Shown piece after piece: positions 5,373 through 61,561 of a stretch of 64,000 bases of DNA. The position numbers and the translations under genes are program-made. Every line of letters begins with the position of its first letter. Position 1 is the first letter of the stretch. This DNA comes from a virus. The stretch is from IMG/VR virus record IMGVR_UViG_3300026484_000382, positions 10,702 to 74,701 of that record; one strand, 5' to 3'. The notes under the pieces are model-generated. The model worked only from the letters and a program-made list of their open reading frames with translations, was not told the DNA's origin and searched no databases.

Positions 5373-6251
5373 ATGGGAGCTAATCGTTTTCTATTGTATA
5401 AACAAGCTATAACAGAACAAGAACTTATAAAATCTATAAATAGACGAATTTCTGGGATAAAGAAAAAAAATAAAGACTTTTCAGTTTTAACACATTCTCA
5501 GCTATTTAATTTTTTTGATTTGAAAAGAAAGTATTTAGATTGGATAAAAGAAAAGAAAAATTCTTTAGATGGTTTTTTAGAAAATGCAAAAGGTGGGATG
5601 AATAAAAATTACTTTAATAGTTTATTAAAAGATTATCAAGAAATTGAAGAGAAAAAACCAGATTTAGTAAACAAAGCTGCTTACAAAGCATTAGATGATT
5701 TACTTGATGATGGTTTTTTTCAAGCGAGAGGTATAGGTGGAAAATATTTTAGAGATAAAGGTATAATAATAGGAAAACAAAAACAAACAAATGGAAGAAG
5801 ATCTACTCTATTCCATGAATTAAATGAACACTCTAATAGAAATAAGAAAGTAAATTGGTATGATTTGAACAAATCAAAAGATGATGAAATTACACATTAC
5901 AATGTGTCCAATGTAAAGGGATTAGACCATAATTTGTTAGTAACAGCAAAGGGTAAATTAAGAAAAGATTTAGAGTTAGTTGGTAAATACTCGAAAAATA
6001 ATGGAGGTTATACACTAGAAAAACTTGTTAGGAGAGTTCTTGGAAAGGACAATCCAGAATTTTTAAACTGGGAGTATGGAAAAGGAAGAAAATTAAATAG
6101 ACATCACAGAAAAAAACTTTTAGAGTTTGAACATAAGCATGCTAGTAACTTTCAAAGCCCTTTAAATGATTCTTACTTAAGAAACATTAAAAATAAAAAT
6201 AGAAACAAAAAGAAAAAAGCAATTTTTTCAGAATATATAAAATACATTTAA
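5373..6251 (+). CDS. Basic protein with KxA leader (MGANRFLLYKQA); putative internal head cargo
   Basis: Leader motif shared with other genes; own promoter; K/N-rich body containing FHELNE. Confidence 0.6.
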   Translation: MGANRFLLYKQAITEQELIKSINRRISGIKKKNKDFSVLTHSQLFNFFDLKRKYLDWIKEKKNSLDGFLENAKGGMNKNYFNSLLKDYQEIEEKKPDLVNKAAYKALDDLLDDGFFQARGIGGKYFRDKGIIIGKQKQTNGRRSTLFHELNEHSNRNKKVNWYDLNKSKDDEITHYNVSNVKGLDHNLLVTAKGKLRKDLELVGKYSKNNGGYTLEKLVRRVLGKDNPEFLNWEYGKGRKLNRHHRKKLLEFEHKHASNFQSPLNDSYLRNIKNKNRNKKKKAIFSEYIKYI

Positions 6252-6262
6252 AAGGAACAAAT

Positions 6263-6581
6263 ATGAGTAAATAGCACACACAAGAGAATATGGGATGTGG
6301 ATAGCAAAAATAATTAGAAGAGATAAAACTTATTTAATTTGTGGTTCTATTAAAAATAGAAGGGCTCATCATATTAATTCTGGTAGTTACCTTCCTGAAG
6401 ATAGGTATAGAGAGAAAAATGGTGTGTGTTTATGTGAAAAACATCATAAATTGTTTCATACATCTTACAAGAACTCTTTTAGAGAGAAATGTACAAAAAA
6501 AAAGATTTTAGTAATTTTTTAGAATTTATATTGAAATTTGTTCCTGTTGATGAAGATTGTGGTATTATAACAGCAACTTGA
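6263..6581 (+). pseudogene. Decayed HNH endonuclease paralogue of 6912..7253
   Basis: SD and ATG at 6263. Codon 4 is TAG where the paralogue has TGG, followed by a 1-nt deletion. A later poly-A run has 9 A against 7 in the paralogue (frameshift). The middle aligns closely with the intact copy. Confidence 0.8.
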
Positions 6582-6635
6582 CATATATGTAAGAGAGAAA
6601 AAAGAGTTTTTTAGAAAATTTAAACGAATAACCCC

Positions 6636-6664
6636 TTGATTTAATTTGAACTATAAGGTATAAT
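6636..6664 (+). promoter_or_regulatory. Sigma70-type promoter with no immediate downstream ORF
   Basis: TTGATT (6636-6641), 17-nt spacer, TATAAT (6659-6664). Confidence 0.7.
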
Positions 6665-6670
6665 CTCTAT

Positions 6671-6827
6671 CGTCCTGAGAATAGTTAATTTTTACAATTT
6701 TTTTACCTTGTTTGTAATAATTTTTAACTCATATTTCTTGCTATTAAAAGTTTTAATTTTTTTAACAAGGGTATCCCCCTTTGTGTGTTCCTTATAATAT
6801 TTTACATTTTAGTTTCTTCTCAGGACG
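6671..6827 (+). ncRNA. Candidate ~157-nt small RNA closed by an 11-bp terminal stem
   Basis: Begins about 7 nt after the -10 box. CGTCCTGAGAA (6671-6681) is the exact reverse complement of TTCTCAGGACG (6817-6827). Internal hairpins have U-rich/CCUU loops and there is no meaningful ORF. Confidence 0.55.
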
Positions 6828-6852
6828 CACTCTTTATTCTCCTCCATATATT

Positions 6853-59232: not shown

Positions 59233-59314
59233 TCTCACTTACTTTCTTTCCTTCTTTTTTTTGAATTCATTTATGTTATAATATGATTAAAAATAAATTA
59301 TTAAAGGATAATGA

Positions 59315-60076
59315 ATGAATTCTATTTCTTTTTTATACAAAAAGGCTGACTTTTATGAACAACAATCCAACAGGGAATTACCCCCTATAAACATAACTCC
59401 ACAGGAAGAAAAACAAAGTATTTTGCAAAACATTAAAAATAAATTTAATAATGCAACCGATCTTGTTGCAACAAAAACAAAGAATGGAATATTAAAACAA
59501 CAACTTAAAGAACAATCTGATAATGCTGACGAATGGAAAAGTAGACATGCAAATGTATTTGAGGAGCTAAATAAAACAAAAAGTTCTTTGGATGACTTAG
59601 AAGCTTCTAAAATGGAATTAGAGGCTAGGCTAAAAAGACAGATTGGGGCATTAAGAAGATTAAAACATGAAGATAAAATTCAAAACAAACAACAAGTTAT
59701 GGCATTGGAAAATCAAATAAATCATTTATCAGGTCAAATATCTGCTCACTCAAAAACTATTTCAAACTACAAACAACAATTAAAGTCAGCAGAGGAGATT
59801 ATTAATGATAATACTCAAGATATAATACAGAAAGAAAATACAATAAAAACATTAAAAACAACTCTTGATGGACACAAAGAAGAAATAGTTGGTTTAAATA
59901 AAAGATTGGATGAACATAAGAACACTATAGAAGAGCTAACTAAAACTCTTGGAAAAACAGAAACTTCAAATAAGTATCTTAAATGGGGAGCAGGAATTGC
60001 TATCCCAACAGTAGGAATGGGAGGATATTTAATGGGTAAATCAAGTAATTCAACAGGAGGAAATAATGCTAACTAA
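59315..60076 (+). CDS. KxA-leader coiled-coil protein (MNSISFLYKKA) with C-terminal Gly-rich anchor
   Basis: Long heptad repeat; WGAGIAIPTVGMGGYLMG; overlaps the protease start. Confidence 0.7.
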   Translation: MNSISFLYKKADFYEQQSNRELPPINITPQEEKQSILQNIKNKFNNATDLVATKTKNGILKQQLKEQSDNADEWKSRHANVFEELNKTKSSLDDLEASKMELEARLKRQIGALRRLKHEDKIQNKQQVMALENQINHLSGQISAHSKTISNYKQQLKSAEEIINDNTQDIIQKENTIKTLKTTLDGHKEEIVGLNKRLDEHKNTIEELTKTLGKTETSNKYLKWGAGIAIPTVGMGGYLMGKSSNSTGGNNAN

Positions 60077-60731
60077 ATACATTGACGGAGATGCTTACTT
60101 AGTAACGCCAGCACATGCTAAACATTGTAATGGTAGTTGTGATTGGTTACAAAAAGAAGCTAGTGTAACACCAGAATCAGTACATTTTTTTGACAATTTA
60201 AAACCAAAACCAGACCATGTGTATCTATTAACAATAGCAATGACAGCAGGAGAATTTTTTGGAGCTAACAAAAATGGAGACTATTTTAGAGAACAGGATC
60301 TAAAAAAATATTACAAAGATTTTAAAGGTGCTGGAGTTTTCTGGAATCACGACAACAAAGATATGAGTAAATCAAGTGGAAAAGTTATTGAGGCTTTCTA
60401 CAATGAACATATGCATAGAGTTGAATTAATTATAGAGTTCCATAAAGATAAAGCTAGATATATTCCTAGTTATATAAAAGATAAAAAACCTATAGCAGTT
60501 TCAATGGGATTAAAAACATCATCGGAAGTATGTTGTATATGTGGTAATGTTACAAGAAATAGTTATGCTACCAGATGTAGTCATCTTAAATATCAAATGA
60601 ATCAAGTTCTTGATGATGGAAGAAAAGTTTATGCCATAAGTAATACACCTCTTAAGATATTTGATATTTCCGTTGTCTTTAATCCAGCTGACAGAACTGC
60701 TTATACTTTATACACAAAATCAGGAACTTAA
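60066..60731 (+). CDS. Prohead maturation protease (HK97/assemblin clan) with Cys/His insert
   Basis: NKNGDYF, WNHDN (putative catalytic His), VSMG (putative catalytic Ser), CCICG...CSH and FDISVVFNPAD; LQKEA-S near the N-terminus. Confidence 0.8.
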   Translation: MLTKYIDGDAYLVTPAHAKHCNGSCDWLQKEASVTPESVHFFDNLKPKPDHVYLLTIAMTAGEFFGANKNGDYFREQDLKKYYKDFKGAGVFWNHDNKDMSKSSGKVIEAFYNEHMHRVELIIEFHKDKARYIPSYIKDKKPIAVSMGLKTSSEVCCICGNVTRNSYATRCSHLKYQMNQVLDDGRKVYAISNTPLKIFDISVVFNPADRTAYTLYTKSGT

Positions 60732-60754
60732 CCTAAAAAAAAGAACAGGAGGGA

Positions 60755-61036
60755 TTAACCCACTAGGGTCATTGTCCCATCCTCATTCAGATTATAAACG
60801 ATGCAATCGTTTATATCCTGCCCTTTTTTCCCTAACAATACTTTGAATTGGGCTTCTTTTGCCCCACTCCATGTTAGGTTTGCTGGGTCTATTGACGCCA
60901 GCGTTTCCCCTTCAGTGGTGAAGATAGACCATTGCCCATCTTGCACCCTTACTCTGAAAGGGATTGGATCTCCCCATGGAAGTTGCAATTCTGCAACCCC
61001 CATAGAGGAGAATAATTTTCTGTCAACTGCTGCCAT
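60755..61036 (-). CDS. 93-aa hypothetical protein with atypically GC-rich DNA
   Basis: AAAGGAG SD before the ATG at 61036; antisense to its neighbours. Confidence 0.6.
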   Translation of the reverse strand: MAAVDRKLFSSMGVAELQLPWGDPIPFRVRVQDGQWSIFTTEGETLASIDPANLTWSGAKEAQFKVLLGKKGQDINDCIVYNLNEDGTMTLVG

Positions 61037-61129
61037 TTTTTCTCCTTTTTTTTTGGATTTTTCGGCTATATATATATAACCCATTAAGTAAGTTTTTTTT
61101 GATATAATAATACAAAAAAAAGGATTACA

Positions 61130-61561
61130 ATGAATGCAAGTGATTTTATTAAGGTGGCTTCTAACAAAGATGTAGACAAAAGATATGACATAAATCCATA
61201 TGATATAGCAGAGTTAGCAGGAGCCGTAGGTACGGTAGGTGGAGCAGGCTATGCTGGATATAATCATATTAAAAAACACAATAATAGGGAAACTATTAAA
61301 GAAAATATGTTAGAAAAAGCTTTAAAAGACAGTTCTGACAAAGAGAAAAAAAGCATTATGAAAGCTATTGAACAAGATGCTGAAGATTATTTTAAAAATA
61401 AAACTGAAAATATTTTAAACTCATACAAAGCCTCTGGGGTTGAAAAAGAATTTAAAGATTTAGCACAGAGAGAACATGGGTTACCAAAAAAAATAGCATT
61501 AGGAAGTATGCTTGGTGGAGGTGCTGTTATGCTTGGTTCTAATTTAATGAATGACGAATAA
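61130..61561 (+). CDS. KxA-leader protein (MNASDFIKVA) with two Gly helices
   Basis: AGAVGTVGGAGYAG and GSMLGGGAVMLG; own TGATATAAT promoter. Confidence 0.7.
   Translation: MNASDFIKVASNKDVDKRYDINPYDIAELAGAVGTVGGAGYAGYNHIKKHNNRETIKENMLEKALKDSSDKEKKSIMKAIEQDAEDYFKNKTENILNSYKASGVEKEFKDLAQREHGLPKKIALGSMLGGGAVMLGSNLMNDE

Follow-up and report, generated by a model that had tools for sequence, protein, structure and literature searches.

A recurrent L-x-K-x-A motif as the probable prohead-protease site and head-cargo leader of a hydrothermal-vent phage

Why would a phage begin more than a dozen of its proteins, whose remaining parts are mostly unrelated, with nearly the same few residues? The question is raised by a 64,000-nucleotide stretch of DNA (the window), which comprises bases 10702-74701 of a single 74.7-kb virus contig of 28% G+C (IMG/VR record IMGVR_UViG_3300026484_000382). 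Near-identical DNA is present in hydrothermal-vent metagenomes of two studies, and we refer to the virus as the vent phage. A first-pass annotation, made from the letters of the sequence, had listed 13 N-termini sharing a K-x-A leader and proposed that these leaders load an exchangeable set of cargo proteins into the head, where the prohead protease removes them much as in T4. Our follow-up supports a modified version of this proposal, to which we assign a probability of about 0.65: the phage's own prohead protease (60066-60731) recognizes and cleaves at L-x-K-x-A, which also serves as a T4-like leader on head cargo.

All 13 of the listed N-termini were recovered, each in its place and on its strand. 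An AAAGGA-type ribosome-binding site lies 5-8 nt upstream in 12 of them; at 55621, on the minus strand, the site is weak, the start falls 4 nt past the stop of the preceding gene, and the two genes are probably translationally coupled. Genes were called on open reading frame length and ribosome-binding site alone, such that the motif itself played no part. We ran the enrichment check that had been suggested for the motif on the 93 called proteins of the whole 74.7-kb contig. The loose form, [LIFVMY]-x-K-x-A, occurs within residues 1-16 of 13 proteins against 1.9 expected from its internal rate (Poisson P = 1e-7), while composition shuffles averaged 2.2 and never exceeded 7. The strict form, L-x-K-x-A, occurs 12 times in the first 16 residues, with 0.97 expected (P = 6e-10). 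The count of 13 takes in one protein upstream of the window (MNLLKEA..., 383 amino acids, aa) and leaves out 55621. The window itself thus encodes 13 leader proteins once 55621 is added, or 14 with the degenerate 56494, in addition to the one upstream on the contig. Across the 14 tagged proteins, the motif ends at residues 7-14. They are listed below, where "the 161-kb relative" denotes a complete related genome with terminal repeats (G002).

5373-6251, plus strand: leader protein beginning MGANRFLLYKQA; 292 aa, very basic, without a family match or a homologue in the 161-kb relative.
7354-7893, minus strand: leader protein MNATQYLIKTA; 179 aa, glycine-zipper segment at the C-terminus, promoter of its own.
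11866-12303, plus strand: leader protein MRSFNLIKTA; 145 aa, a glycine-zipper segment at either end, inserted within the tail/baseplate region.
42983-43354, plus strand: leader MDLLKVA followed by four more L-x-K-x-A sites; 123 aa, acidic.
45370-45777, minus strand: leader protein MSYLEKIA; 135 aa, whose orthologue in the relative (52% identity) begins MGLLHKIA.
48924-49328, plus strand: leader protein MRAFDLIKTA; 134 aa, glycine-zipper family.
49416-49877, plus strand: leader protein beginning MNSKSYFLFKTA; 153 aa, 20% Gly, glycine-zipper family.
49890-50144, plus strand: coiled-coil protein with LEKTA at residues 10-14; 84 aa, upstream of the capsid gene.
52612-52746, plus strand: leader protein MENNQNLIKIA; 44 aa, with orthologues of 50-52 aa in relatives that retain the leader.
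52799-53329, minus strand: leader protein MRSFYLIKTA; 176 aa, with several glycine-zipper segments, divergent from 53376.
55376-55621, minus strand: leader protein MKAHTYLEKKA; 81 aa, Gly-rich, the least certain member.
56494-56655, plus strand: degenerate leader MKKNTSKVA (..TSKVA..); 53 aa.
59315-60076, plus strand: leader protein MNSISFLYKKA; 253-aa coiled coil with a C-terminal glycine zipper, overlapping the start of the protease gene.
61130-61561, plus strand: leader protein MNASDFIKVA; 143 aa, glycine-zipper family, promoter of its own.

Which residues define the motif? The consensus first put forward, M-x(n)-[FY]-x(0-2)-hydrophobic-x-K-x-A, holds in its K-x-A, but its hydrophobic position is more precisely Leu, and its aromatic residue is present in only part of the set. 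With Ala numbered as P1, Leu occupies P5 in 26 of 29 N-terminal and clustered sites against 7 of 24 scattered loose matches (P = 9e-6). Aromatic residues occur at P6/P7 in 9 of the 14 leaders compared with 2 of 15 internal sites (P = 0.008); they hint at information beyond the cut site, although shared descent could equally yield them. In clustered sites, the residue preceding Leu is usually acidic. The residue following Ala is most often Ser, both in the 161-kb relative (15 of 34 clustered sites) and in the window phage (5 of 15).

The motif is concentrated in the head region, where the strict form appears 27 times per 5,764 aa; tail and baseplate proteins contain it once per 10,905 aa, a difference in density of about 50-fold. 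As the first-pass annotation had noted, the tail, sheath (32109-34247), and baseplate proteins encoded from 8480 to 42929 all begin without the motif, the sole exception being the inserted gene 11866. Three acidic head proteins (42983, 51647, and 55997) carry five to six copies each, and the orthologue of 42983 in the 161-kb relative retains both the leader and further sites. The capsid protein and the protease also bear the motif near their N-termini, as had been claimed. The following head proteins thus add to the leader set:

50635-51570, plus strand: major capsid protein, HK97 fold by its predicted model; 311 aa, with LIKAA at residues 16-20 and LLKQA at 26-30.
51647-52600, plus strand: multi-site scaffold-like protein with five strict L-x-K-x-A sites and MTKTA; 317 aa, with 7 sites at matching positions in orthologues.
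55997-56494, plus strand: multi-site acidic protein with LDKTA, ITKLA, LNKEA, and LEKTA twice; 165 aa, with 5-7 sites in orthologues.
60066-60731, plus strand: probable prohead (head maturation) serine protease, matching phrog_18299, with its own site LQKEA at residues 28-32, followed by Ser.

The capsid protein provides the most extensive comparison. Its structural model has a well-defined core (pLDDT 91.2, pTM 0.85) and low-confidence residues 1-40, and Foldseek returned the phage capsids of P-SCSP1u, T5, D3, and HK97 as top matches, each with a probability of 1.0. On the strength of this model, 50635-51570 is the HK97-fold major capsid protein in the head module. LLKQA, which would be cut before Met, is its predicted maturation site, and LIKAA is a second, more N-terminal copy. 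In nine of nine capsid orthologues from ten related loci, LLK(Q/E)A immediately precedes the conserved mature start, while the residues before it vary. A search of 1.84 billion representative proteins assembled the wider family into 485 clusters at 50% identity, with only four cultured phage records. Among 126 full-length members at 20-55% identity, K-x-A lies exactly 6-7 residues ahead of a conserved F-I-R-x-K-L-R-E core in 105 (about 83%). An apparent Lys-to-Glu swap at this site across the family was traced to alignment noise once sequences were anchored on the core motif.

The protease matches phrog_18299, "head maturation protease", with E = 1.2e-11. Its tblastn matches fall in phage Arash, Vibrio phages, Bacillus phage G, and actinophages, and certain of them are annotated as capsid maturation proteases, Gordonia phage genes among them. 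Across 15 homologues, the motif residues Leu28, Lys30, and Ala32 are invariant, as are His95 and Ser146. In an hhalign comparison with T4 gp21, His95 and Ser146 align with the NH and VSS positions, within a weak profile alignment (E = 0.13). Neither the sequence alone nor its profile gave a match among Protein Data Bank sequences, and the homologue search returned close relatives only, none with a Pfam domain.

The protease has two further features. A set of Cys and His residues, invariant or almost so in the 15 homologues, is divided between the predicted propeptide (His20, Cys21, and Cys25) and an insertion past the catalytic Ser (Cys156, Cys159, Cys171, and His173). The set could form a zinc site that bridges propeptide and enzyme body. 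The vent phages encode the protease by itself, at a length of about 220 aa; in Arash (locus L011, 11738-13213) and Vibrio phage D69 (locus L029, 6605-8020), the domain is the N-terminal part of a 471-491-aa protein. The C-terminal half of the latter holds 4-5 more motif sites, which suggests a protease-scaffold fusion.

We also asked whether the motif persists in relatives. IMG/VR relatives have capsid proteins 58-96% identical to that of the window. The 161-kb relative has the motif at the N-terminus of 15 of its 210 proteins, about 11 of them convincing and spread across the genome, and five proteins carry 5-10 sites. In the ten related loci, the multi-site proteins keep their sites, and small neighbours begin with ..LYKIA, ..FLKIA, ..LEKIA, or ..LIKKA. 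Orthologous leaders in one of these loci (L001) have changed at P4, P6, P8, and P9, whereas P5, P3, and P1 are free of substitutions. Orthologues of 49890 keep L-E-K-x-A near the N-terminus in all relatives. The gene directly upstream of the protease is tagged in both the window and the 161-kb relative (MLLQKIA in the latter), with no detectable sequence similarity between the two proteins.

The pattern extends to cultured phages. In Salmonella phage Arash, whose annotated capsid protein is 34% identical to that of the vent phage, the capsid protein has the motif at residue 25 and the protease at residue 28, and gp220, gp223, gp225, and gp242 hold 6-9 copies. Vibrio phage D69, with a capsid protein 31% identical to the vent phage's, likewise bears it at the capsid protein, the protease, and multi-site head proteins, of which Arash and D69 have 3-5. 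The 59-aa D69 gene VPHD69_0262 (OZ195729.1; locus L029, 107-286) shares the architecture of the tagged proteins, with MDKVA followed by a glycine-zipper segment.

What, then, do the leaders precede? A C-terminal Gly-rich hydrophobic segment is found in 8 of the 14 tagged proteins, several of which have a second one right after the leader, and GxxxG is twice as frequent in the tagged set as in the whole proteome. A membrane-inserting role is conceivable for this glycine-zipper cargo. Four proteins (11866, 48924, 49416, and 61130) are weak paralogues, while the other mature parts are mostly unrelated; 5373, 42983, 45370, 49890, and 52612 show no mutual similarity. Beyond the glycine-zipper proteins, the set comprises the very basic 292-aa protein, a coiled-coil protein, and small helical proteins. 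None of the tagged proteins was placed in a known family by PHROGs, Pfam, homologue, or ESM Atlas searches. PHROGs and Pfam, run on ten of them, returned only coiled-coil noise and sub-threshold matches; the ESM Atlas search with 61130 returned only unnamed viral clusters, with scores below 0.9; and the homologue search with 48924 found just 3 near relatives among 5.8 billion proteins. The head proteins gave no Pfam or NCBIfam match apart from the RNA polymerase beta-like gene at the window end.

The cargo had been described as exchangeable, which describes most of the set. For ten of the 14 tagged proteins, no homologue is detectable in the 161-kb relative; that phage has a tagged set of its own, with at least nine clear members, and structural genes are 24-73% identical between the two phages; the tagged set turns over while the tag stays. 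The remaining four (42983, 45370, 49890, and 52612) are conserved core genes of the head module, and their orthologues hold the motif at or near the N-terminus. The positional orthologue of 56494 in the 161-kb relative carries the full leader METKKELLKIA. The recurrence of a leader plus glycine-zipper protein in the distant D69 also argues against a wholly exchangeable cargo.

The leader genes have a characteristic upstream arrangement. A TATAAT-like box with an A-rich ribosome-binding site lies upstream of 22 genes, comprising 9 of 13 leader genes and 13 of 80 others (Fisher P = 2e-4). Leader genes are found on both strands, mostly with promoters of their own. Structural genes with the same unit include 8480, 12415, 28180, 29597, 45844, and 53376. 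In one leader pair only, 11866 and 53329, a DNA cassette is still held in common, and it lies downstream of a TATAAT-like late promoter box:

11846-11894, no strand assigned: 49 nt of ribosome-binding site and leader DNA, matching 53301-53349 of the opposite strand at 92% identity.

Elsewhere, the leaders encode L, I, K, T, and A by differing synonymous codons (TTA/CTT/CTA, AAA/AAG, ACA/ACG/ACT, and GCT/GCA/GCG among them). Therefore, selection acts on the leader peptide and not on the DNA.

Two neighbouring features belong with these observations. Between the divergent genes 52799-53329 (minus strand) and 53376-54821 (plus strand), positions 53301-53376 form a near-palindromic promoter region (TTTTTTAGATATAATTATATCTAAAAAA) that appears to serve both strands. 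Upstream of the window, at contig positions 4688-5116 (window -6014 to -5586), a 142-aa type IV pilin-like protein (MEKRSFTLIELIFV) is encoded behind its own late-type promoter, and its first residues (MEKRSFTLIE...) resemble the MRSF.LIK leaders.

Taken by analogy with known systems, the tagged proteins would be targeted, packaged, cleaved, and ejected. The prohead would assemble late in infection from capsid protein, protease, acidic scaffold/core proteins (42983, 51647, and 55997), and about a dozen leader proteins, the leaders of the small proteins being 6-12 residues that end in the motif. The protease, active solely within the prohead, would strip about 30 residues off the capsid protein and about 32 off itself, and would cut the multi-site proteins into 15-70-residue pieces that exit the head. 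It would also trim the leaders off the small proteins, which would remain inside and probably leave with the DNA at infection. By the T4 analogy, the leader most likely also mediates entry into the assembly core before its removal. Motif positions, density in the head region, promoter type, and turnover all fit the T4-like leader originally proposed, with Ala as the favoured P1 residue and Lys as the other candidate.

Several other explanations deserve weighing against this one, and two of them accept the protease and differ on what the leader does or where it is cut. The motif may be a protease site only, with entry into the head left to the glycine-zipper or coiled-coil parts; the cut would then merely release or activate the tagged proteins, or these would be disposable core parts that get degraded. 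The Gly-rich hydrophobic C-terminal segment of 8 of the 14 tagged proteins could indeed be the real anchor, D69 gene 262 has just MDKVA ahead of its glycine zipper, and the minimal leaders MDLLKVA and MNLLKEA contain little besides the cut site. We nevertheless think this unlikely, as the loss of a mere 6-12 residues would have no evident purpose unless the leader acts before the cut, and the aromatic excess at P6/P7 of leaders (9 of 14, against 2 of 15 internal sites) points the same way, though shared descent could explain it. In T4, moreover, the first 10 residues suffice alone for targeting (PMC9026906). The position of the cut is a separate matter. The residues around the motif favour cleavage after Ala, which is itself invariant and most often followed by Ser, with cleavage after Lys as a possible alternative, because the L-x-K spacing equals that of a T4-type h-x-E site (h, hydrophobic). 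In the latter case, Leu would occupy P3 and Lys P1, with Ala a P2' preference. HK97 protease cleaves its own capsid protein after Lys. The window protease is probably a distant relative of T4 gp21 and SPN3US gp245, whose L/I-x-E (PMC9026906) and A-x-E (PMC10052503) sites have the same spacing. We regard a cut after Lys as the lesser, though real, possibility: Ala equals Lys in its invariance, both across the protease homologues and in 105 of 126 capsid proteins, Ser most often follows Ala, matching the P1' preference of SPN3US (PMC10052503), and P1' would otherwise be a variable T/E/I/V/Q/K position.

The other two explanations dispense with the protease, and both fare far worse. Shared N-termini could be the trace of gene duplication and of a copied cassette of promoter, ribosome-binding site, and start, without common function. 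The 11866/53329 pair, 92% identical over 49 nt from ribosome-binding site through leader, is what such copying would leave, as are the four weak paralogues (11866, 48924, 49416, and 61130) and the promoter and ribosome-binding-site unit that recurs before 22 genes. Yet 13 genes with that unit are leaderless, and the remaining leaders vary at synonymous positions while keeping their residues; tagged proteins such as 5373, 42983, 45370, 49890, and 52612 are mutually dissimilar. The motif also lies inside the capsid protein, the protease, and scaffold-like proteins, and in the distant Arash and D69; a neutrality check found the L001 leaders unchanged at P5, P3, and P1. We judge copying without function very improbable. 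Still less credible is a signal for a host machine unrelated to the protease, be it prepilin peptidase, Sec, an L27/Prp-type protease, or a membrane-binding or translation-enhancing start. Here, the resemblance of MRSF(N/Y)LIK to the MEKRSFTLIE start of the pilin-like protein and the membrane-like Gly-rich segments of many tagged proteins are set against leaders with no hydrophobic core after them, Lys where prepilins carry Glu, and a motif position that ranges over residues 3 to 12. A type IV prepilin leader (class III signal) was rejected, as polar or charged residues follow the leaders where a prepilin has a hydrophobic helix of about 20 residues directly after G/A|F-T-L-I-E, and Lys replaces Glu at +5; so was a Sec signal for signal peptidase I, as the hydrophobic core is missing and the -3 residue is Lys rather than that of A-x-A. 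The prepilin, Sec, Prp, and translation variants all fail because the motif clusters deep within soluble acidic head proteins and holds a fixed site in the capsid family, and a translation effect cannot account for the internal sites or for the invariant, GC-rich Ala codon.

For L-x-K-x-A as both protease site and head-cargo leader, a number of points weigh on the other side. The protease has no Pfam or NCBIfam match, its AlphaFold2 model, built from 4 sequences, is poor (mean pLDDT 51), and the alignment of its profile to T4 gp21 falls short of significance (E = 0.13). Several leaders (MRSF.LIKTA and others) are more alike than the bare motif demands, so part of their similarity reflects common descent or copied DNA. 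N-terminal enrichment in the 161-kb relative is weaker, at 15 against about 6 expected (P = 2e-3), partly because genuine internal sites raise the background. No family of short dispersed leaders was seen in the 139 of 181 kb of Arash that were read, and leader use may thus be confined to the vent lineage and D69. The Arash virion proteome lists 116 of 252 proteins as structural, which is too broad to discriminate, and the paper mentions neither the protease nor cleavage (PMC10585845). Our literature search found no paper on an L-x-K-x-A rule or on head maturation in this clade.

A broader and more tentative reading is that the leader acts as a portable label in the vent lineage. Any late gene that gained the promoter, ribosome-binding-site, and leader unit would be loaded into the capsid, and a changing set of membrane-inserting glycine-zipper proteins might be delivered in this way, into host membranes at infection, with the basic/Ala rule extending across a large, almost entirely uncultured family of RNA polymerase-encoding phages of about 160-180 kb and replacing the Glu rule known from T4 and giant phages. 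We put this forward as doubtful but worth stating.

As for the genome itself, the contig probably holds about half of it, because the 161-kb relative is complete and another relative, of 76 kb, is rated only 47% complete. Relatives with protease and capsid genes 67-70% identical to those of the window measure 161-162 kb, one with terminal repeats. Compared with known phages at the nucleotide level, the head region matched none, and an 84.7-kb contig in the protein collection also carries some of the window's proteins. At 63259-64000, an RNA polymerase beta-like gene runs off the window end (NCBIfam rpoB, E = 1e-8); it shares 58% identity with the first part of a 1369-aa protein of the 161-kb relative and resembles Arash gp206. 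The clade encodes a multisubunit RNA polymerase (gp206 and gp216 in Arash), which tops abundance in the Arash virion preparation. In the tail region, five tandem 21-24-nt repeats (29939-30091) encode (E/V)-K-E-P-V-V-E units at the C-terminus of a 173-aa protein (29597-30118). A 219-nt direct repeat, 76% identical between copies (6283-6501 and 6933-7151), spans the small genes 6295-6522 and 6912-7253, the second of which has a 58% identical homologue in the 161-kb relative.

The work yields a predicted cutting rule for a large phage family, by which sequence alone suffices to predict mature virion proteins and head cargo. With Arash (Salmonella) and D69 (Vibrio) in culture, the prediction lends itself to direct testing. 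If confirmed, the prohead-protease superfamily would have moved from an acidic P1 to a Lys/Ala rule with the whole maturation logic intact. The leader could also be employed to package foreign proteins in capsids, a use already made of the T4 leader. The glycine-zipper cargo raises the further question of what membrane-like proteins do within a myovirus head.

How does the vent phage compare with known systems? T4 follows the same logic. Its gp21 protease follows an L/I-x-E rule; capsid-targeting leaders of 10-19 residues precede the internal proteins, including IPI-III, and Alt; virion propeptides span 7-65 residues; and the core proteins are multiply cut (PMC9026906). T4 internal proteins are poorly conserved, and the leader and cleavage logic was shown by experiment; prohead proteases of tailed phages, according to the same review, have the assemblin fold (PMC9026906). 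The vent phage likewise has short leaders that end in the protease motif (6-12 residues, against 10-19 in T4) and, as a sequence pattern, one motif at the capsid protein, the protease, and multi-site core proteins. In both, the tagged proteins vary between related phages while the leader is kept, and the proteases are probably distant relatives, with His and Ser in line. The vent-phage motif differs in carrying a basic residue and Ala where T4 carries Glu, and it marks some 14 genes on both strands, mostly with their own promoters. Its cargo is mainly glycine-zipper and membrane-like, whereas that of T4 is small, basic, and DNA-associated; its capsid protein, of 311 aa, combines a minimal HK97 fold with a predicted propeptide of about 30 residues; and, unlike the experimentally established T4 system, it is known from sequence alone.

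The giant phages offer a second parallel. SPN3US gp245 and phiKZ gp175 follow an A-x-E rule established by experiment, with Ser preferred at P1' in SPN3US (PMC10052503, PMC5694885). N-terminal propeptides on many head and ejection proteins, redundant sites, P1' Ser, and a self-processing protease are all features that the vent phage would share, and a multisubunit RNA polymerase is likewise encoded in the vent clade. The cutting rules are not the same, the vent-phage leaders are much shorter, the vent-clade genomes measure about 160-180 kb, and neither the capsid protein nor the remaining head module has detectable sequence similarity to those of phiKZ and SPN3US.

More distant systems share single elements. 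Herpesvirus assemblin cuts at (V/L/I)-x-A followed by Ser. If the vent-phage cut falls after Ala, its P1 Ala and P1' Ser agree with this consensus, while its invariant Lys at P3 and hydrophobic residue at P5 do not belong to it. In staphylococcal phage 80alpha, capsid and scaffold leaders of about 13 residues copy the extension of host L27 and are cut after Ala by the host cysteine protease Prp. A short N-terminal leader common to several head proteins is thus found in both phages, but the vent phage has its own motif-bearing serine protease and a motif unlike the L27 leader. Encapsulin cargo-loading peptides bind the shell directly and are not removed by proteolysis. As proposed for the vent-phage leaders, they are short terminal peptides that steer unrelated cargo into an HK97-fold shell; they stay on and bind it, whereas the vent-phage leader is predicted to be cut off.

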